Notes: a model not told the origin generated them from the sequence alone. Shown: positions 1,564 to 62,571, counted from the stretch's first letter. The stretch: DNA of 64,000 bases from Candidatus Uhrbacteria bacterium CG10_big_fil_rev_8_21_14_0_10_48_11 (GCA_002793855.1 PFET01000012.1:6222-70221), one strand, 5' to 3'. Program-made: numbers and translations.

Positions 1564-2805
1564 CTACTGCTTGCGATAAAGCGGCGGCACGGCGGCCAGT
1601 TCTTTTCCGGCAAGCAAGGTTGTCATGGCGCCTCCTCCGGTTGAACGATAGTCGACGTACGACTCCATTCCCGTACTCTTCAATACTTCAAGTGTATCGC
1701 CGCCACCGACAACACCAAACGCCGGCCCCTCAGAACGGGCAGCAATAAGCCAACCAAGCGACCGACTGCCTTGCGCGAACACTGGTTTTTCAAACATACC
1801 AACCGGCCCATTCCAAACAATCGTCGCTGCCGCCTTAATGATAGTTGCGTACTCGAGAACTGTCTTTGGCCCAATGTCGTAAATAATTTCTCCGGCTTTT
1901 ACTTTTTCACCATTTTCTAAATCAACTAAGCGAGGCATTGCTGTTGGACTTTTGGCTACCACTACATCTTTTGGTAAATGAATCAGCGCCTTCATCCCGC
2001 GACCAAAAAAGCGTCGCTGCTCTTTCAACAGTTTACGCAGTAGCACCTTCGATACTTTTTCTCCGACCGCTGATTTCCCAACCGGTATTTTTTGAATTTG
2101 TAAAAAAGTATTCGCCAACCCACCGCCAAGAAGAATGGCGCTTGTGTGCGGTGCCAGATTGGTAAGCACGGGAAGCTTATCCATTTTGATACCACCCATA
2201 AGAAGCACAAATGGTTTTTTGGGGTGAGAACGAACGTCTTCAAGTACCTTCAGTTCTCGAGCAAGTTGCCAGCCAGCGTAAGCAGGCAGCAGCTTAGCTA
2301 CGCCAAGCATCGAGGCGTGCGCACGATGTGAATTAGAAAAGCACTCGTTGACATAAACGTCACCAAGCGACGCAAGTTGTTTTGCAAATGCCGGATTGTT
2401 TGCCTCTTCTCCCGAAAAGAACCGCAAATTTTCTAATGCCAAAATATGCCCCAGCTCAATTTTTTTTGACCGCTTAGCAAGCAACCCAAAGTCATGAAGT
2501 AGCGAAAACGAAATATCCCCCACCTCGGGTGGCAGTAGCTGCTGTAGGCGCGAGATAACCGGTCGAAGCGATAGACTGGCAACGCGGCGACCGTGTGGCC
2601 GCCCGATATGGCCAACCAGTACAATTCTTGCTCTGGCCTTTGCTAAACGAACAATAGTGGACACCAACTGTTGCAGGCGAAAGTCATCTGCTACGAGCAA
2701 ACCGCCACGAGCTGTTTTTTCTAGCGGCACGTCAAGCGCGCCACGAAGGAGTACTCGCTTACCTGCCAGCTTTGCGTCGTCAGTAATTGTACGAAGTGTA
2801 CCCAT
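1564..2805 (-). CDS. pgk: Phosphoglycerate kinase
   Basis: 413 aa with the VLLRxDLDVP N-terminus and a GGGD..L C-terminal motif, in the gap-pgk operon. Confidence 0.93.
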   Translation of the reverse strand: MGTLRTITDDAKLAGKRVLLRGALDVPLEKTARGGLLVADDFRLQQLVSTIVRLAKARARIVLVGHIGRPHGRRVASLSLRPVISRLQQLLPPEVGDISFSLLHDFGLLAKRSKKIELGHILALENLRFFSGEEANNPAFAKQLASLGDVYVNECFSNSHRAHASMLGVAKLLPAYAGWQLARELKVLEDVRSHPKKPFVLLMGGIKMDKLPVLTNLAPHTSAILLGGGLANTFLQIQKIPVGKSAVGEKVSKVLLRKLLKEQRRFFGRGMKALIHLPKDVVVAKSPTAMPRLVDLENGEKVKAGEIIYDIGPKTVLEYATIIKAAATIVWNGPVGMFEKPVFAQGSRSLGWLIAARSEGPAFGVVGGGDTLEVLKSTGMESYVDYRSTGGGAMTTLLAGKELAAVPPLYRKQ

Positions 2806-2892
2806 GCTGCTAAAGAGTGTAGCACTTTTCTCTCCTGCTCGTCAGCGCAACTTACCAAAATAACGTACCCGCTTTTGGCGGGTACGGAAGTC

Positions 2893-3906
2893 TTAAATTG
2901 TTTTACCTACCAATTCTGCCATTTCTACCAGTCTATTGGCATAGCCCCACTCGTTGTCATACCAAGCCATTAGTTTCACAAGGTCACCATCAACGACTTT
3001 TGTTAGGCCAAGATCAACTATGGCAGAGTGGCTGTTGCCAATAATATCGTGGGATACTAACGGTTCGTCAGTAACGTCAAGAATCCCCTTCCAGCGCTTT
3101 TCCGCGGCCGCTTTTCGAAAGAGTTCATTAACGGCTTCAACCGTGGTTGGTTTTTTTACCACAAAGGTAAAGTCGGTAAGTGAGCCAACTGGGGTAGGAA
3201 CCCGAACCGAAAGTCCGTCAAATTTGTCGGTCAGTTCAGGAATTGTCTTGGTGGTAGCCACGGCAGCCCCCGTTGTTGTCGGCACGATATTGACAGCGGC
3301 AGCGCGTGCACGGCGCAAATCTTTATGCAGTGGTGGCGTCGGCCCATCAACCAAATTTTGTTCTGCAGTGTAGGAGTGAATAGTGGTGATAGCGCCCTTG
3401 CTAATACCCAACGCTTCTTCGAGGACCGCGGTTACCGGACCAACGCAGTTTGTTGTACAGGAGGCGTTCGAAACCATGGCGTCACTATCGTACTGACCAT
3501 GATTAACACCAAGCAGATAAGTTTTTGTTTCGCCGCCTTTGGTTGGCGCCGAGACAACGACACGCTTTGCGCCAGCTGTCAGGTGCGCGTTTGCAGCGTC
3601 ATCCCGAGTAAAACGACCGGTGCACTCTAGCACCACATCAACTTCATGCTTTCCCCATGGCAAAGTTGCCGGATCTTTCTCGGCAAAAACCTGGTACGAA
3701 ATACCGTCGACAATCAACTCGTGTTCGCTGTGGGTGATAGAGAAGGGCGCTCTTCCGTACACTGAGTCGTATTTTAAGAGTTGCGCCAAGGTTTCTGTGT
3801 CAGTTAAATCGTTGATAGCGACAATCTTAATAGCTGGATTGTTGAGCGCGATTTTAAATGCCGCCCGCCCGATTCTACCAAAACCGTTAATGGCAACCTT
3901 CAACAT
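2893..3906 (-). CDS. gap: Glyceraldehyde-3-phosphate dehydrogenase
   Basis: NGFGRIGR Rossmann motif, ASCTTNC active-site motif, 337 aa. Confidence 0.95.
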   Translation of the reverse strand: MLKVAINGFGRIGRAAFKIALNNPAIKIVAINDLTDTETLAQLLKYDSVYGRAPFSITHSEHELIVDGISYQVFAEKDPATLPWGKHEVDVVLECTGRFTRDDAANAHLTAGAKRVVVSAPTKGGETKTYLLGVNHGQYDSDAMVSNASCTTNCVGPVTAVLEEALGISKGAITTIHSYTAEQNLVDGPTPPLHKDLRRARAAAVNIVPTTTGAAVATTKTIPELTDKFDGLSVRVPTPVGSLTDFTFVVKKPTTVEAVNELFRKAAAEKRWKGILDVTDEPLVSHDIIGNSHSAIVDLGLTKVVDGDLVKLMAWYDNEWGYANRLVEMAELVGKTI

Positions 3907-3925
3907 AACGTTAACCTTGGGGTGA

Positions 3926-4525
3926 TTACTGTCCTATTTCGTAGCGCGTGAAGCGCTTGATTTGTACATTCTCCCCCACTTTTGCCGTTATAGCAACCAG
4001 AAGGTCTTTTATTGTCTGCGATTCTTCTTTGATAGAGGACTGAGCAAGAAGCGCTTCTGCTTCTACAAACTTAGCAAAACTTCCCTCTAAAATCTTATCA
4101 ATAATTGTGGCATCTTTGCCGGCCAACTTACCCTCCTCCTCAAGACGCTCTTTTGCCAAACTAAGTTCTTTTGCTTTCACCTCTTCGGGAATGTCCTCGA
4201 CTGATAGGTAACGTGGATTTGTTGCGGCTACCTGCAAAGCAATGTCATGTACAAACGACTGAAAGTCTTCGTTGCGAGCGACAAAGTCGGTTTCGCAAGC
4301 AACTTCAATCAACACGCCAACACGTCCGTTCCCGTGAACGTAGGCGTGTACGATGCCCTCACTGGTCTCTCTGTCTTGCTTCTTCAATGCTTTGGCTTGT
4401 CCTCGTTTCTTCAAAAGCTCAAGCGCTTTTGCCTGGTCACCACCAGCTTCTTCGAGTGCTTTATGAATGTCGGAAATGCCCGCACCGGTTTCTCGGCGCA
4501 AGGCAACAATGGTTTCTTTTGTCAT
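3926..4525 (-). CDS. tsf: Elongation factor Ts (short form)
   Basis: N-terminal UBA-like LRxxTGAGxxDxKKAL motif, 199 aa, directly downstream of rpsB. Confidence 0.88.
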   Translation of the reverse strand: MTKETIVALRRETGAGISDIHKALEEAGGDQAKALELLKKRGQAKALKKQDRETSEGIVHAYVHGNGRVGVLIEVACETDFVARNEDFQSFVHDIALQVAATNPRYLSVEDIPEEVKAKELSLAKERLEEEGKLAGKDATIIDKILEGSFAKFVEAEALLAQSSIKEESQTIKDLLVAITAKVGENVQIKRFTRYEIGQ

Positions 4526-4576
4526 AGTACTAACGCTATTAAAATAAATCCCCCCTGACTTCGTGCCGCGCGGGCA

Positions 4577-5365
4577 CTAGACGCTTGCCTTAGTCGCCGC
4601 TGGTGGAACCGACGGACTACTAACGCGTCGGGCAGTGCCACGCTTTACGGCGGCGGCGGCTTCGTCAATCATAAGTTTTAGCGAACCAACGGCATCGTCG
4701 TTTCCCGCAATTGGATACTGAACCAGATCCGGATTGGTATTCGTGTCACAAACAGCAACAATCGGAACGCCAACTTTGTTTGCTTCACCAACGGCAGTGC
4801 GCTCTCGACGTACGTCGATAAGGAAAATTGCTTCCGGCATACGTTCTAGCTTTGCGATACCACCAATGACGCCTTCCAGTCTATTGTACTCTCGCTCCCG
4901 CTCTAGCCGCTCTTTCTTTGTCATATTTTCAAATGACTTCTGTTCAATCATCCGGCCAAGTTCTTTATGGCGTGCAATCATTTTACCGATAACCGCAAAG
5001 TTCGTAAGCATCCCACCAATCCACCGATCGTGTACGTAAGGCATAGCAACCGCCTCCGCGCTACTCTTCACGTAGTTCTGAATTTGTTTCTTGGTGCCTA
5101 CAAAAAGCACATTTCCACCCTTTACAACAATGTCCTCAATAAACTTCATTGCCTTATCCATCTGCTGCCGAGTCACTTCCAGATTGATGATGTGTATCCC
5201 TTGTCTTGCAGTAAAGATAAAAGGTCGCATTTTTGGATGCCACTTAGAAGTCAAATGTCCGAAATGAACACCCGCTTTTAGCATCTCTAAAATGCTCGGC
5301 GAGGAGTTCGCCTGCTTTTCTTTATCGGCAGTGGTGACGGGACTTGTTGCTGTAGGTTCAATCAT
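4577..5365 (-). CDS. rpsB: 30S ribosomal protein S2
   Basis: MPYVHDRWIGGMLTNF motif; rpsB-tsf synteny. Confidence 0.95.
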   Translation of the reverse strand: MIEPTATSPVTTADKEKQANSSPSILEMLKAGVHFGHLTSKWHPKMRPFIFTARQGIHIINLEVTRQQMDKAMKFIEDIVVKGGNVLFVGTKKQIQNYVKSSAEAVAMPYVHDRWIGGMLTNFAVIGKMIARHKELGRMIEQKSFENMTKKERLEREREYNRLEGVIGGIAKLERMPEAIFLIDVRRERTAVGEANKVGVPIVAVCDTNTNPDLVQYPIAGNDDAVGSLKLMIDEAAAAVKRGTARRVSSPSVPPAATKASV

Positions 5366-24864: not shown

Positions 24865-25422
24865 TCATTCAATCCGCTCCCCTGCAAGGTGCGCAAATTC
24901 GTAGGCATCTACCATGGCTAGCCAGCTTGCCTCAGTGACGCTTCTCGCTGTCGCCACGGTTCGGAAGTCCCAGCCATGGAACGTCCAGTCCACGACAACC
25001 TTGACCCGTGCCGCAGAGCCGCCACTACCAACCTTAAAAACGTGGTAATCACCGAGCTCCAAGCCCAAAGCTTTGACTTCAGCAACTTTGTTCATTGCGT
25101 TATCAAGCGCATTGATGGGCCCGTCTCCACGACCGGCCACATGGTCTTCTTGCCCTGTTTCCAGACGAAGCATGATTGTTGCTTCGGCAGGCTCTGCAGT
25201 TCCATCATCACCGCTTCGATGTAATTCACATACTCGGTACCACTCGACAAAAACAAAGGAGCAATTTGATCCATTCTCTCGAAACTGCGCCATTGCAATC
25301 GAAACAGCCTCCTCGCGTACGTATTCGCCATTCATTAAAAAAACCGCGATACGTACACCCCTTTCTCCGCTAAGATCCAAAAGACCCAACTCGCTGAGTT
25401 TCGCGAAATCAATTTTTTTCAT
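24865..25422 (-). CDS. Stand-alone LeuA regulatory (LeuA_dimer-like) domain protein, 185 aa
   Basis: GRGDGPINALDNAMNKV and VGSGGSAARVKVVVD...VTEASWLAMVDAYEF align with the C-terminal R-domain of the leuA product in this window ([15 protein letters not shown]...[11 protein letters not shown]...[13 protein letters not shown]). Strong GGGGAGGAAGGG Shine-Dalgarno sequence. Confidence 0.55.
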   Translation of the reverse strand: MKKIDFAKLSELGLLDLSGERGVRIAVFLMNGEYVREEAVSIAMAQFRENGSNCSFVFVEWYRVCELHRSGDDGTAEPAEATIMLRLETGQEDHVAGRGDGPINALDNAMNKVAEVKALGLELGDYHVFKVGSGGSAARVKVVVDWTFHGWDFRTVATARSVTEASWLAMVDAYEFAHLAGERIE

Positions 25423-25515
25423 TTCCCTTCCTCCCCACTCGTTGGTGGTGTGTCATGAAGTTGTCAAAGAGCGGGTTGCCCCCTTCTCGAGTCGATATCC
25501 GTTTCTCGACGGATA

Positions 25516-25546
25516 GAAAACGCCAGCCCCGATGAAGGGCTGGCGT
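25516..25546 (-). terminator. Hairpin ACGCCAGCCC-cgatgaa-GGGCTGGCGT followed by TTTCT
   Basis: 10-bp stem, 140 nt downstream of the disrupted gene's stop. Confidence 0.5.
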
Positions 25547-25681
25547 TGAAACTCAAGAGATACTTTAGCTACAACGTAAACCTTCCACCGCAAGTGGGCT
25601 GGCTAATAATGCTAATAATCTGAATTGCGCGAAGGTCCATATCGCTAAAATAGTAACAAGGCAGCTATTCCCGGTCAAGTC

Positions 25682-26910
25682 CTAGTGCGTCGGTCCAGCT
25701 GGTGTAAACAAATCCGTTTCGAAACGAGCTACTTCTGTACCCGTAGGATAATTATCAGCTGTAGGATCAACCTGTTTAACTAGGTAGTGGGTACTAAAAT
25801 TATTTTCCTTAAAACCTTCTTTGGTAAGTAATCGTTTTTCTCCATTCATAATAAGGTAACGTTCGTTCGATTTCTTGTACTGGATAATAGTACCGTCCGG
25901 ATGTACGTCGCTTGACGTAATAGGCGCCCCGACAGAAAAGGAAACAAAGTACCCATCTGGGATTGTTATTGCATTTTTTCCCAGTGCTTACCATAGAGTG
26001 CCTCACCAATTTCGTTCGTTGTAATTTCTCGAAGGTAACCATTGGGCGTTACTGCGTAAATTTTTGAATCGTTCTCAATTTTTACCAACGTTGTACCGGG
26101 ACGAATAAGCACATTGCCAGCAGTCGGCAATGAAGCAATAAAATCAAATGACACATCTACAACGTTCGACTGGTTTGGGTACCAGGTACGAAAAATATCT
26201 TTGTACAAAACGTCCTTACCTTTGGCGTCGTCATGCAGCGCAAAAAACGCATAGCGCTTGAGGTCGTTTCCAATATAGTAGTAAAGCTCATTACCTGAAT
26301 GGTCAGTATAACGAATAACCGAACCAGCCCCGATTACTGGACGCTGTTTGGTAACAGCGTGTCGTACGTTTACGGACTATTTAGCTCCGGCATTGGTAAC
26401 AGTAAGGTCAGTGAGGTGAGCCCGCAGTGTCGCTTTGATAGGCACAGTGTCCAAAATTGTTCCATAAACAGAAAGAGTTGTAGTGCTACCAGATGAAACC
26501 AAGAAAGGGCTCGGCATCGTAAAATCAACGATACGAACATTATTATTTTCTTTGACTACTGCTATGTCGCTTGCTGATGTCGTCGTACAGTTACTTTCAA
26601 TACACGTTCTGATTACAACATATACATTGTCACCGACAGCAGTGACACCATTATTTCGATCATCTATTTTTACTGTTCCCTTTATTGTTTCAATCTCCCC
26701 ATTTATTGGTGCGTGGACGTAAAAACTAGCAATTTCCAGATTGGCACCCGGCGCTAGCTCGTTGGGCTGAGGCGCCGCCTCTCCTAACCCTACGCCTACA
26801 ATTATCGTATTAGCCTTGCGCGCATAACTTACCGTAGGCAGCAACGTTAGTGCCAAAACAATTGAAAAAACGGTAATAATGGTTCGATTTCGCATAGAAA
26901 ATAACGGCAA
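25682..26910 (-). pseudogene. Disrupted secreted repeat protein (about 409 codons): signal peptide, in-frame TAG at 26377..26379, and a +1 shift needed in the A6 tract at 25974..25979
   Basis: A non-random protein frame continues straight through the TAG for 136 codons. Adding one A to GGGAAAAAATG restores the frame into IPDGYFVSF...PTH. The C-terminal repeats resemble those of the 974-aa protein. Confidence 0.55.
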
Positions 26911-26984
26911 TAATTAAGAGGCAAACCTTAACCCCTAAGGCCGTTTTTGTCAACCAAAACGCCTCCCTACCCTCTGTCACTACG

Positions 26985-28793
26985 TTAGTTCTGGCGAGTA
27001 GCAATTTGTGCTTGTACTCGAGAAATAAAATCAGCCAAGGTAATTTGCAATAACTCTTTTTCTCCGCGAACCCGCACAGAGAGTTGTGTACCGTCATCCC
27101 ATTTTCCCTCTTTAGGCGCCTCTTTGTCGCCAATCACCAATGCGTACGGCAGTTTCTCCGAAGCTGTTCGCCGTATCTTATTACCAACCGTGTCACCACT
27201 TTGATCAATGCTTACTCGTATACCTTCCGCTTCAAATTTTTCTGCAAGCATCAAGACGGCATCAAGATGCCCTTCGCCAACTGGCACCAAGCCAACCTGC
27301 ACCGGTGAAAGCCAAACCGGAAATGCTCCGGCAAAGTGCTCGATGATAATACCAATGAAGCGCTCCATTGAGCCGTAAATAACTCGATGGATGGCAACCG
27401 GCGTTTGTTTTTTTCCCTCTGCGTCAGTGTAATGCAAGTTAAAACGGCGCGGTTGCTGGAAGTCTAACTGAATGGTGCCCATCTGCCACTCCCTACCAAG
27501 GATGTCGCGCATAAGAATATCCACCTTCGGCCCATAGAAGGCACCATCACCATCAAGGACGGTAAATGCCTTACCACTCTTCAGTAGTATTTCTTTTAGT
27601 GTTCCCTCAGCACGATCCCACGTCTCACTATCTCCCATAAACTTTTCCGGCCGCGTTCCCATTCGGTACGAGTACTTGAGTCCAAAAATAGAGTAGAAGC
27701 GATCGACAATTTCAAAGACCCTAGCGTACTCATCACCGATCATATCCTCAGAAACAAAAATATGCGCATCGTCTTGGCGAAATTCACGAACCCTAAACAA
27801 CCCATTTAACGTACCCGAAAGTTCATTGCGATGAATCGGATCAGTGTCCGAAAAACGTAGTGGTAAATCACGATAGCTTCTTCCGCGCGAACCAAACACC
27901 ACCATGGCGTTTGGACAGTTCATGGCTTTAACCCCATACTCTTCCTCTTCGTCGGTTTTTGCCACAAACATATCCCCCCAATAATGTTCGCAATGACCAG
28001 AAGTGATGTAGAGTTCACGCTTATTAAGAAGCGGAGAAACAATTTCTTGGTAGCCGCGACGTCGATGCTCATCTCGCCAAAACTGGATAAGTTCGTTGTA
28101 GAGAACAACTCCCTTCGGTAGCCAGTACGGCATCCCAGGGGCGGTTTCGTGAAACATAAATAAATCAAGCTCTTGACCAAGTTTCCGGTGGTCACGCTTC
28201 TTTGCCTCTTCTATCATTGCAAGATGTTGAGAAAGGTCGCGTTCGGTTTCAAAAGCTACCCCATAGACACGTTGCAGCATTTTGTTCTTTTCGCTTCCTC
28301 TCCAGTACGCACCGGCAAGCTTAGTCAACTTGAACGCGCCTATTGCTTCGGTGCTTTTTACATGAGGTCCTCGACACAAATCGACAAAAGCCCCCGTTTC
28401 GTAAACTGAGGTAATCTCCTTTGCAGCCGGATCGATATCAAAAGACTCATCGGCCTCTACTTTTGTTGTCCCTTTATCGCGCAGCGCCTCTAATAGCTCA
28501 ACCTTATAGGGCTGCTTTTTCTCCTTAAAAAAGGCAATTGCTTCTCCAATTGGCATTTCTCTACGAACAAACGCTTCGTTTCGTTTTTTAATCTCCTCCA
28601 TTTTTTCTTCAATAGTCGACAGATTGTCGACCGAAAGCGACACGGGAAGATCAACGTCGTAGTAAAAACCATTTTCTACAACGGGACCGACACCAAATTG
28701 CGCGGTCGGGTAAAGCTCTTGCAATGCGGCGGCAAGTAGGTGCGCTGCTGAGTGGCGCATTGTTTCGACGGCTGAAAGTTTTGGTTCATTCAT
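26985..28793 (-). CDS. thrS: Threonyl-tRNA synthetase
   Basis: Class II motifs and anticodon-binding domain; 602 aa. Confidence 0.95.
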   Translation of the reverse strand: MNEPKLSAVETMRHSAAHLLAAALQELYPTAQFGVGPVVENGFYYDVDLPVSLSVDNLSTIEEKMEEIKKRNEAFVRREMPIGEAIAFFKEKKQPYKVELLEALRDKGTTKVEADESFDIDPAAKEITSVYETGAFVDLCRGPHVKSTEAIGAFKLTKLAGAYWRGSEKNKMLQRVYGVAFETERDLSQHLAMIEEAKKRDHRKLGQELDLFMFHETAPGMPYWLPKGVVLYNELIQFWRDEHRRRGYQEIVSPLLNKRELYITSGHCEHYWGDMFVAKTDEEEEYGVKAMNCPNAMVVFGSRGRSYRDLPLRFSDTDPIHRNELSGTLNGLFRVREFRQDDAHIFVSEDMIGDEYARVFEIVDRFYSIFGLKYSYRMGTRPEKFMGDSETWDRAEGTLKEILLKSGKAFTVLDGDGAFYGPKVDILMRDILGREWQMGTIQLDFQQPRRFNLHYTDAEGKKQTPVAIHRVIYGSMERFIGIIIEHFAGAFPVWLSPVQVGLVPVGEGHLDAVLMLAEKFEAEGIRVSIDQSGDTVGNKIRRTASEKLPYALVIGDKEAPKEGKWDDGTQLSVRVRGEKELLQITLADFISRVQAQIATRQN

Positions 28794-59646: not shown

Positions 59647-62571
59647 TTAGAAGGTCACGCTGCCTGTTGCTAGTGGTACTCCGGCAACCTCGGCTGCAAT
59701 TCGAGAATCACGACCAATGGTTTCGACACTTAAGAGCTGGAGCGCAATGGTATCCCCAGTAACACCGTCCGTTGTATTAACGTAAACCCGCAAGCGCATG
59801 ACTTGACCAGGCGCAAGGGTCGGTCCGGTTACTCGATTACCACCGCTACCGCTTACGGGTGAACTTATGGTTGAGCCACGTGTGTACCCAGTTGTCGCAT
59901 CCACTAACCGCATACTCGCATAGCCACGGGTGACCGATAGGCCACTCGAACCTGGTGCATCAATAAAGGTAAGTCCGCTTAACTGAATATCCTCGGCGCC
60001 AGAGGCAGTAACGGTAAAGCCGGCAACTGGCACATTTCTTCCGGTGGTTGCCGTGCCGCCAGTGAAAGTTGTGTCGGGTGAAACCGTAAGCACACTTCGC
60101 TCTACTACCACCGCTGTTGTTTGTTCATTTCCATAAGTCACACTGATGAGCGCGCCCGATGTTTTGCCGTGCGCGGTAATGCCGCCAATCGTAAACTGTG
60201 CCACCGAACCGTCGCTGGCAAACGAGGAATCAACCAGCAGGTCGTACCCGTACTCGCGATTAGCGGGAATAGTCACGCTCAATGGAAAACGATAGGATCC
60301 ACCACTTGGTGAGACAATGGTTACATTGCCAAGTTTCAAATTAGAAAAGCCGTGGCTGTAAATAACCGGAGACGAACCGATAGGCTCCAGCACCACTTCG
60401 TCTATTTTGATATCCTCTCCCGGGCTTGCTTTCAAGAGCAATCGTCCAATTTTCGCTCTCACTTTACCGGCCGGTATTGAGGCGGCAGTGAACCGCGGGT
60501 CGTTTCTGACAAAGAGAGAAATTTCCTGTGTTGCACGAACAGGTCCAGCAACAACCGTTGCAAAAGTAACCGTGTTTGTCTCTCCGCTTACGGTAAAATG
60601 AAAATTAGAAAAATTAACTTGATACGAGTCGCTTGCCTGGACGGCATCGCTTAGGCTCCCTACTAATTCATACGTATAGGTTTTACCGTTTACTAATATG
60701 GGCGCTGTCGATAGATAGGTGGTAACTGAATGGTCGGTCACCGTATCGGCATCAACGGTGGCTATGCGATCTCCTCCTTTTAGTCGCAAAGAAAGCGAGC
60801 CAAGAAATTTTGTGTGTGGTGCAGTTGTTGCAACTTCGATAGTCAATCGATCCCAGCGCAGGTTTTGTCCACTTGGTCGAATATCGATACTAGCAAGTAC
60901 GGTGTCGCTTGCCCCCTTTGTTAATGGACCACTCGGACTATTGGTAGACAGCGCCACAACAACACTTCCGCCAATAATATGCAGGGCATTAACGCCCGTC
61001 AGTAAGGTACTACCGACGGGAAAACTGCCGCCAATACCCGCAGACACAGCAGAAACTGCATAACCGAAACTGTTTCCCACGGCATAGATATCATAGTCGT
61101 TTTCAATAATAAACTGTGCCTGACGGTCGTTACCCGATATAATATCGCCGCGTAAAATAAATTCCTGACTCTGTCCGGCACTTATACTGTACGGCGAAGT
61201 AAACCGAAGAGCGACCGTGTTACCACTCGTTGAACCAGCTACAGCGACTGACCTACTGCTGCTATCAACCAGTTTCAGATGTGCAAAATCATCAATTGAC
61301 CCATTGCCAACCATCGTCAGCACAAGCCGTTCAACGCTTACGGACTCTCGTCCAGTCTGCACGGTAAACTTAAAACGGTTGAGGTCTTGGTTGATTTCGC
61401 CTACACGAATATCGCGTGCACCACTGGAGAGCTGCACAACGGAAACCTGCAGCGAACCTATAAGTGCCGTGCTATTCAACACGGTGTAGGTCCTACTGAG
61501 AAGCGGAAAGGAACCCGTTATGGTTCCTCCGGTCGACTCTATATCAGCCGCGTTCTCTAATGAAAATGTAACCGTACTTTGACTACCGGTTGCTAACGTT
61601 GTGGCAAAGTTTGCCGTTAGGGTCAGTGACTGTGTTTGGTTGGCGGCAACCGAAACTGGTTTTAGAAAAGTAAAATGCACAGCTCCGTTCACAAATTGCT
61701 GCGGTCGGGTGAGCGCAAAGCCGCTCTCGTCAAACACGAGTAAGCTGGTAACGTCCCGATCTTGCAGGAAACCACGTCTGGTAATAGTGATAGCCTCCAC
61801 ACTAGCCGTACTGTCTCCTCCGTGGAGCACAATCTTTGCTACCTCATTTCTGGTTGTTCCAGAGGGTACCGCTACGGGAAGGCTAGTCACCGCGAGGCTG
61901 ACAGATAACGCAGCGCTTGGTGGTGCTGTCGGTGGTTCGGGTGGTGCAGGCAAGGTGTCTAAACTTAACGGATCGATTTGCTGATAGCCGTCAAGCAGTG
62001 GCTGGGGAACAGTAAGAACGTCAGACCAACGAAAGCCCGCTGCAGTAAAAAGATCGGGGGACGGAATAAGCGCTCTCGTCTGTGCGGTGTAATCCAGATA
62101 ATAAATGTTTGGATCGTCTGCTATTTTCACCAGCCGACCATTTCGTAATGTTCGACTATCGTCTCCACTTATATGCACTATATCCTTCCACTGCTCTCCA
62201 GAATCAAGGAAGCTTTTTTCTGTCGGAAACCAGACCTTCTGTCCACTTAACTGGTCTAAAAGATAAACGCGAGGACCCAACGATGACTTAATAAGTCGTA
62301 AAGGAGTAAACGCTTGCAACGTCGAACTACTGACGTCTTTAATATGAATGAACCGATAGGCATAAGACTGCAATACATCGAAATTTGGAATATAATGCCG
62401 AATCCCGTCAATTACCGCATAAATCTTTTTTGTACTTTGGTCGCGCAAAAGCTGAACGTCTGCATCAAAATAAGAAGTTGCGTGCGCCTGTGATGCACCA
62501 AACAAACACACTAGAGTAAAGAGTGCCGAGAAAAGTATTTTGCTCTGTTTTTTAGGCGTCATTCGCTTCAA
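59647..62571 (-). CDS. Large secreted Thr/Ser/Val-rich beta-repeat protein (974 aa) with N-terminal YxxxDGxRxxIP repeats
   Basis: Signal peptide MKRMTPKKQSKILFSALFTLVCLFGASQAHA. The repeats KIYAVIDGIRHYIPNFDVL and NIYYLDYTAQTRALIPSPDLF are also present in the disrupted gene at 25682..26910. Confidence 0.7.
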   Translation of the reverse strand: MKRMTPKKQSKILFSALFTLVCLFGASQAHATSYFDADVQLLRDQSTKKIYAVIDGIRHYIPNFDVLQSYAYRFIHIKDVSSSTLQAFTPLRLIKSSLGPRVYLLDQLSGQKVWFPTEKSFLDSGEQWKDIVHISGDDSRTLRNGRLVKIADDPNIYYLDYTAQTRALIPSPDLFTAAGFRWSDVLTVPQPLLDGYQQIDPLSLDTLPAPPEPPTAPPSAALSVSLAVTSLPVAVPSGTTRNEVAKIVLHGGDSTASVEAITITRRGFLQDRDVTSLLVFDESGFALTRPQQFVNGAVHFTFLKPVSVAANQTQSLTLTANFATTLATGSQSTVTFSLENAADIESTGGTITGSFPLLSRTYTVLNSTALIGSLQVSVVQLSSGARDIRVGEINQDLNRFKFTVQTGRESVSVERLVLTMVGNGSIDDFAHLKLVDSSSRSVAVAGSTSGNTVALRFTSPYSISAGQSQEFILRGDIISGNDRQAQFIIENDYDIYAVGNSFGYAVSAVSAGIGGSFPVGSTLLTGVNALHIIGGSVVVALSTNSPSGPLTKGASDTVLASIDIRPSGQNLRWDRLTIEVATTAPHTKFLGSLSLRLKGGDRIATVDADTVTDHSVTTYLSTAPILVNGKTYTYELVGSLSDAVQASDSYQVNFSNFHFTVSGETNTVTFATVVAGPVRATQEISLFVRNDPRFTAASIPAGKVRAKIGRLLLKASPGEDIKIDEVVLEPIGSSPVIYSHGFSNLKLGNVTIVSPSGGSYRFPLSVTIPANREYGYDLLVDSSFASDGSVAQFTIGGITAHGKTSGALISVTYGNEQTTAVVVERSVLTVSPDTTFTGGTATTGRNVPVAGFTVTASGAEDIQLSGLTFIDAPGSSGLSVTRGYASMRLVDATTGYTRGSTISSPVSGSGGNRVTGPTLAPGQVMRLRVYVNTTDGVTGDTIALQLLSVETIGRDSRIAAEVAGVPLATGSVTF

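Follow-up and report, generated by a model that had tools for sequence, protein, structure and literature searches.

The window analysed here is a stretch of 64,000 nucleotides from the genome of an uncultured groundwater Uhrbacteria, a member of the Candidate Phyla Radiation (CPR, or Patescibacteria) whose record at the National Center for Biotechnology Information (NCBI) is a Candidatus Uhrbacteria metagenome-assembled genome (MAG). On its minus strand, between positions 25682 and 26910, it contains three successive protein-like pieces that are the remnants of a single gene for a secreted protein of about 404 amino acids (aa). An in-frame TAG codon and a frameshift at a run of six A residues (A6) interrupt this gene, both lesions are real and fixed in the sampled assemblies, and the locus is very probably an inactivated gene, either a pseudogene or at most a truncated gene, whose inactivation we infer to be recent. 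The features of the locus are as follows, in window coordinates.

26377..26895, minus strand: 5′ open reading frame (ORF), the surviving piece 1; start ATG at 26895, 172 aa, stop TAG

26910, minus strand: alternative TTG start of the 5′ ORF

26377..26379, minus strand: lesion 1; codon 173, located in the inter-domain linker, is an in-frame TAG

25969..26376, minus strand: piece 2, 136 codons in the frame of piece 1, coding for the linker, the first repeat and the greater part of the second

25974..25979, minus strand: lesion 2, an A6 run inside repeat 2, read GAA AAA ATG; a run of seven (A7; GAA AAA AAT) keeps the frame

25682..25973, minus strand: piece 3, 97 codons, shifted by -1 from the frame of piece 2 and coding for the remainder of repeat 2 and the whole of repeat 3

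25519..25545, minus strand: intrinsic terminator hairpin, CGCCAGCCC-loop-GGGCUGGCG and then UUUUCU, downstream of piece 3

An earlier reading of this DNA, made without database searches and referred to here as the sequence-only reading, had noted a TAG at 26377 with 136 open codons beyond it, and both are present. Piece 2 reads SVNVRH...HWEKMQ and is then closed by a TAA (25968-25966, minus strand). The A-run lies 134 codons downstream of the TAG and three quarters of the way into the gene, with the frameshift at codons 306-308 of the rebuilt sequence; its minus-strand context is GGGAAAAAATG, and it appears on the plus strand as T6 at 25974-25979. One additional A in the run converts ...HWEKMQ and its stop codon into ...HWEKNAITIPDGYF..., such that translation proceeds across the junction as ...LYGKHWEK/NAITIPDGYF... 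and on to the TAG at 25684-25682 with which piece 3 terminates. The sequence-only reading had proposed just such a fusion ending at 25682, and the joining of the frames stands, although the third piece extends for 97 codons from the junction and not for the roughly 94 claimed; its estimate of a fused protein of about 409 aa agrees with the reconstruction, which is 404 aa from the ATG and 409 aa from the TTG. The peptides of the full-length product that would span the lesions are NAGAK-x-SVNVR (also AGAK-x-SVNV) and HWEKNAITIPDG.

Neither piece 2 nor piece 3 has a signal peptide, and the earliest in-frame start past the TAG is a TTG located 56 codons downstream. Gene callers nonetheless find leftover ORFs in both, of 80 or 62 aa in piece 2 and of 55 aa (25682-25849) in piece 3; the NCBI record gives the products of 172 aa and 80 aa as two distinct hypothetical proteins (PJE75652.1 and PJE75651.1) and leaves the 55-aa ORF unannotated. 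There is only one strong terminator, and it follows piece 3: a 76-nt stretch of its RNA folds with -26.6 kcal/mol (z -3.9, with 0 of 200 shuffles folding as well), and this downstream position fits a single ancestral transcription unit ending at the hairpin. A scan for promoter and terminator consensus sequences gave weak matches only and did not list the 25519-25545 hairpin.

The evidence that the three pieces derive from one gene comes foremost from intact homologues. A word-indexed search of 5.8 billion proteins returned a single relative (P0001, 416 aa), which is colinear with the fused protein over residues 47-402, across both lesions (33% identity, E 6e-67), a likeness well beyond chance; this search does not list the window's own fragments and so is unusable for variants of the locus. 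An exhaustive HMMER search with a two-sequence profile recovered 4,187 protein clusters at E<=1e-3 and 3,182 at E<=1e-10, and among the 150 listed profile matches there is a second homologue with the full-length architecture (P0003, 411 aa), the cluster of which includes a 415-aa protein from Patescibacteria (P0158, NCBI MFA5954180.1); P0003 and P0158 likewise span both lesions. Nearly all of the 150 listed matches are to the C-terminal module, aligned in one or two stretches at profile positions ~214-410, and most of them have a single stretch of ~190 residues that crosses the position of the frameshift.

At the junction itself the alignments are equally clear. With one A added, the reconstruction passes the junction without a gap when aligned with 33 or with 49 homologues (34 and 50 members in all), and in the smaller alignment all 34 sequences run uninterrupted through the segment L300-Y320 (LYGxxW...PD..F..Y) only when that A is present. 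Residues G302 and W305, which precede the junction, are invariant, and D314, F317 and Y320, which follow it, are conserved to nearly invariant. Identity to P0001 is lowest in the N-terminal piece 1 (24%) and reaches 40% and 47% in pieces 2 and 3, respectively, so that the two pieces beyond the TAG are the best-conserved parts of the family. Both full-length homologues have Leu at the TAG position, in a motif 'GKL', and because it is encoded there by CTC or CTG the comparison is uninformative as to the ancestral codon. The genes for P0001 and P0158 lie in genomic contexts unrelated to that of the window locus, and we therefore regard these proteins as homologues of the same architecture rather than as positional orthologues. 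A profile scan of genome contigs using the two-sequence alignment found one distant Patescibacteria locus (L008), which is cut by the contig end.

Structural models place the lesions within this architecture. The N-terminus resembles a Sec signal peptide when read from the sequence (MRNRTIITVFSIVLALTLLPTVSYA/RK) and is modelled with a helix at residues 8-18. In the AlphaFold2 model of the fused sequence, residues ~50-168 form a beta-sandwich of moderate confidence (predicted local distance difference test, pLDDT, 70-83) with its last strand at 156-168; the TAG position, residue 173, falls in a less confident linker, and the C-terminal module is modelled with pLDDT 85-97, with values above 90 for piece 3. 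When modelled alone (AlphaFold2, 50 sequences) the module is one compact fold (pLDDT 93.2, predicted template-modelling score, pTM, 0.87) with the frameshift in its middle. The signal peptide and Ig-like region described in the sequence-only reading are thus recovered, as a Sec-like N-terminus in the sequence and a beta-sandwich in the model, and its proposal that the pieces make up one protein is borne out by the colinearity of the fusion with intact homologues of 411-416 aa, by the gap-free junction, and by the folding of the module as a unit. The comparison with related genes that it had suggested points the same way, in that the homologues are contiguous over this region rather than split, and the downstream frames are conserved.

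The uniformity of the two lesions was judged on assemblies, that is, at the level of consensus sequences. The exact 172-aa product is found on 7 contigs. Throughout the parts of 25600-26990 that they contain, five assemblies (ENA ERZ27293412 and ERZ27293413, JGI 3300025142 and 3300004208, and Logan SRR6240789) match the window at 100% identity, the TAG included, and the A6 run is present in all four of them that reach it; the ERZ27293413 contig ends before the run. A sixth assembly, ENA ERZ27293414, also has both the TAG and A6, with one single-nucleotide polymorphism (SNP) relative to the window over 2,023 bp, and by virtue of this SNP represents a distinguishable strain that carries both lesions. 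The TAG is therefore seen in 6 of 6 other assemblies, from at least four samples, and A6 in 5 of the 5 that cover the site. The assemblies behind these counts are of several kinds: MEGAHIT-style k141 contigs (judged by their names), JGI, Logan and the NCBI MAG. The SNP has the following position.

26181, minus strand: T>C in piece 2, changing TAC (Tyr239) to CAC (His), in ERZ27293414

Of 34 family members, 33 have Tyr or Phe at position 239 and none has His; the change fits relaxed constraint, as a single and anecdotal observation. Leftover products ending in ...HWEKMQ come from 8 contigs, and 6 contigs carry the 55-aa remnant, which stands alone in its 90% cluster; ~15 billion proteins include none of the products that an A7 allele would give. 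A protein scan of metagenome contigs and a search of them with a DNA pattern for the A-tract (N{4,9} in place of the run) gave no matches; this collection evidently does not contain the contigs in question and is hence silent on tract variants.

These observations can be accounted for by a simple course of events. The ancestral gene would have lain between thrS and a small LeuA_dimer-domain gene, and would have encoded a Sec-secreted protein of ~404 aa consisting of a signal peptide, an Ig-like beta-sandwich of the adhesin or pilin kind, a short linker, and a ~190-aa C-terminal module of three repeats. Two independent single-nucleotide events would then have inactivated it: a substitution that gave rise to TAG at codon 173, in the inter-domain linker, and a one-base deletion that reduced an A7 run (codons 306-308) to A6 and broke the frame midway through repeat 2. 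Translation from the ATG at 26895 would at present end at the TAG and yield at best a 172-aa secreted beta-sandwich without its anchoring module, a fragment that may still be made or be useful, and the 0.7 kb from the TAG to the terminator would be an untranslated remnant in which the ORF calls of 80 or 62 aa and of 55 aa are presumably meaningless. Simple decay had been named among the alternatives in the sequence-only reading, and it is this that the fixed TAG and A6, together with the colinearity of the fragments with intact homologues, support.

There are several points that weigh against a recent pseudogene. Beyond the two lesions the remnant is pristine, without further stops or indels, and it keeps all of the invariant and nearly invariant residues of the family; recent inactivation predicts this state, yet continued selection would look alike. 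The TAG falls exactly at the domain boundary, such that the 172-aa product could be a functional short protein. The assemblies are probably all from one aquifer (the record names hint at Crystal Geyser) and from one population lineage, and thus sample a single lineage rather than independent ones; a rare A7 subpopulation may lie beneath the consensus assemblies; and none of the homologues found is a close positional orthologue that shares the N-terminal domain.

Of the other explanations, the one that survives best is a functional truncation, in which the TAG allele has been kept because an anchor-less 172-aa beta-sandwich is useful and only the C-terminal part of the gene is a remnant. The location of the TAG agrees well with this, as codon 173 lies in the linker just past the last strand of the N-domain (156-168) and the signal peptide and the complete domain are retained; the TAG is moreover fixed in all of the sampled populations. 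However, we find no homologue composed of the N-domain only, the sole 172-aa match among the listed profile hits being the protein itself, and the N-domain model is of moderate confidence (pLDDT 70-83) and the expression of the fragment conjectural. We consider a functional truncation possible but, on balance, unlikely.

A very unlikely proposal is that the two lesions together form a doubly gated stochastic surface switch, in which a rare A7 allele or a -1 slip on G-GAA-AAA-A would combine with low read-through of the TAG. If this were true, a full-length anchored protein would be made in small amounts in a CPR episymbiont. In a milder form of the proposal, the TAG allele would be an adaptive conversion of an anchored adhesin into a released 172-aa Ig-like protein.

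Phase variation of the more familiar type, with slipped-strand mispairing toggling a surface protein between A6 (OFF) and A7 (ON), was the favoured suggestion of the sequence-only reading and has some attractions. The frameshift sits in a homopolymer, one additional A restores the frame exactly, a secreted or surface product belongs to the class that is usually phase-variable, and the remnant is intact apart from the lesions. One difficulty is the position of the TAG: because it lies upstream of the A-run it blocks the ORF at any tract length, leaving no ON state to be reached, and it is present in all of the assemblies. The tract is also short and unremarkable, at 6 nt, in a window whose 64 kb contain 150 A/T runs of at least 6, of which 100 have exactly that length and the longest reach 9 nt. 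In Neisseria, variable homopolymers are predominantly of at least 8 nt, and A/T tracts are mostly weak candidates (PMC5084427). There is no variation in tract length among the five other assemblies that cover the site, the database of ~15 billion proteins holds no A7 product, the tract is far from the 5′ end of the gene, and the homologues, including that of the sister genome described below, have no A-run at this site. An unambiguous A6 and TAG without heterogeneity is the outcome that had been held to speak against switching, and it is the outcome seen among the assemblies; with a tract that is neither variable nor conserved and an ORF that it could not restore, slipped-strand switching is highly improbable.

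Equally improbable is an assembly or sequencing artefact, in which the true genome would have a sense codon and A7, with the gene intact. Homopolymer indels are a classic form of sequencing error and a MAG consensus can carry errors, and a public protein (P0154, 309 aa, ENA) appears to read Gln at the TAG position. The lesions are nonetheless identical in assemblies from several samples made by different assemblers, and both recur in the SNP-marked strain ERZ27293414, which argues strongly against the assembly error that the sequence-only reading had offered as a further alternative. Nor is this assembly error-prone in general, since the remaining ~63 kb of the window is tight, clean coding sequence without other broken genes; the 954-bp stretch at this locus is the largest ORF-free gap of the window. 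We considered P0154 as a repaired allele and rejected it, as the DNA of its contig has TAG and the Gln is a gene-caller artefact arising from a code in which TAG is Gln. The call is as follows.

145-1074 of ENA ERZ27293414 contig k141_280163 (L009): P0154 gene call, made with an alternative code on a short contig

The same miscall joins unrelated fragments in one 90% protein cluster.

The weakest explanation, to which we attach practically no weight, is programmed recoding, with read-through or reassignment of the TAG and either -1 ribosomal frameshifting or transcriptional slippage at the A6 tract. Slipping by -1 on G-GAA-AAA-A does yield the homologous ...WEKNAITIPD... and the downstream frames are perfectly preserved, but two different rare events would be needed in one mRNA, TAG is a normal stop, used by 17 of the window's 46 long ORFs, the zero frame (TGG GAA AAA ATG) provides a heptamer G GAA AAA that is not of the form X XXY YYZ, the 106-nt stretch from just before the tract to ~95 nt past it shows no significant fold (z -1.3, with 20 of 200 shuffles folding as well), and all homologues examined are contiguous at the site, with DNA that lacks the A-run. 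Transcriptional slippage is known on A/T runs of ~9 or more (Thermus dnaX, endosymbiont poly(A)), and A6 is shorter than these. ARAGORN finds no tRNA genes in the whole window, including the surroundings of the secE-nusG-rplK-rplA cluster, and there is accordingly no suppressor tRNA in it; searches with Rfam return nothing at the locus (E<=1) or in the whole window (gathering thresholds).

The setting of the inactivated gene can be compared among related genomes, in which the order dnaE, a 375-aa gene, thrS, a variable slot, a LeuA_dimer-domain gene, a 51-aa gene and miaA is conserved. The slot and the gene downstream of it have the following positions.

25423-26984 of the window: variable slot

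6810-11692 of L011: variable slot in the sister genome

6810-7643 of L012: variable slot in a second relative

24865-25422 of the window, minus strand: downstream gene, a stand-alone LeuA allosteric/dimerisation domain of 185 aa (PF08502, E 1e-17)

In the closest relative found, the sister genome (L011), whose threonyl-tRNA synthetase (ThrRS) is 81% identical, the slot is filled by a 1,427-aa Peptidase_S8/FG-GAP protein, the last ~200 residues of which are the same C-terminal module, intact and 41% identical to our reconstruction, with LFAPGG as its C-terminal motif where the window locus has LFTPAGP. In a relative with a ThrRS that is 72% identical (L012) the slot is ~800 bp without a credible ORF. 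As its contents differ among these relatives, the slot appears to be a site of surface-protein turnover, with the window representing one stage of loss.

The gene that flanks the slot seems itself to have changed. At the position of the LeuA_dimer gene, L012 has a full-length synthase of 536-562 aa (HMGL-like/HCS_D2/LeuA_dimer; 7644/7722-9332), and the gene of the sister genome is, like that of the window, short, with 213 aa (L011, 11693-11809). The catalytic part thus seems to have been lost in this lineage, and the regulatory domain to have been kept as a separate gene.

The C-terminal module warrants consideration apart from the gene in which we encountered it. It spans ~190 aa in three repeats and is placed either directly after the signal peptide or at the extreme C-terminus, in proteins whose length reaches 2,248 aa. 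When scanned against Pfam and NCBIfam, the fused protein and its homologues show no family for either the N-terminal domain or the C-terminal module, and a profile search of the PDB sequences gave no match. Fold searches with the whole model find mostly generic beta-sandwich matches to the N-domain; with the module alone the matches are informative but weak, and by these the predicted repeat unit may resemble the fold of PlyCB, of the EccB repeat and of endolysin cell-wall-binding domains. No sequence similarity is detectable between the module and the PlyCB, EccB-repeat and enterococcal endolysin domains (PDB 4f87, 3x3m, 6ist, 7d55), and it differs from these in packing three repeats into one compact unit; its binding to the cell wall is a prediction. 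The module probably tethers surface proteins to the cell envelope, which we offer as a lead and not as proof; its terminal placement is suggestive of envelope binding and no more than that.

The sequence-only reading had also reported repeats in common with a 974-aa protein of the window (59647-62571, minus strand). Pairwise similarity does not sustain this (E 0.1), whereas at the profile level it holds, the N-terminus of the 974-aa protein (residues 41-188) being a divergent copy of the module (hhalign probability 94.9%, E 4e-8). The contig with the intact P0158 gene (L010) encodes a CARDB-domain protein of 974 aa (1939-4863, minus strand), the same length as the window protein, ~1.1 kb away from that gene.

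The import of the inactivated gene itself is slight beyond annotation, where PJE75652.1, PJE75651.1 and the unannotated 55-aa ORF should be corrected to fragments of one gene. There is in addition a caution for users of public protein sets, into which gene calling with TAG as Gln has introduced a spurious 309-aa 'read-through' version. The slot provides a data point on gene turnover, as its surface-protein genes are gained, swapped and lost among close Uhrbacteria, which fits rapid turnover of the CPR cell surface. The more valuable by-product is the module, which sits at the termini of very large secreted proteins; found in over 4,000 protein clusters and represented by no model in Pfam or NCBIfam, it is a candidate for a general envelope-anchoring module of the Patescibacteria.

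Among known systems, the contingency loci of Neisseria, Haemophilus, Campylobacter and Helicobacter share with this locus a frameshift at a mononucleotide run in a gene for a secreted or surface protein. They differ from it in that the run here is A6 only, is neither conserved nor over-represented, shows no length polymorphism, lies late in the gene, and is preceded by an independent upstream stop. Programmed -1 frameshifting, as in dnaX (A AAA AAG) and the transposases of insertion sequences (IS), likewise places an A-run at the junction of two frames where a -1 slip gives a homologous protein, but at this locus there is no canonical zero-frame heptamer and no stimulatory structure, the shift is not conserved, and a genuine stop precedes the site. 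The likeness to ordinary bacterial pseudogenes, which arise through a nonsense mutation together with a homopolymer indel and are documented for many reduced or host-associated genomes, is much closer: here too the fragments are jointly colinear with intact homologues, the lesions are of single nucleotides and a short homopolymer is the site of one, the fragments lack a start or signal peptide of their own, a folded domain is cut, and fragments are annotated as hypothetical proteins. Nothing essential differs from these, although this example is young, with two lesions, belongs to a CPR genome, and has its stop at a domain boundary, such that a truncated product may persist. The locus is very probably one more young pseudogene.
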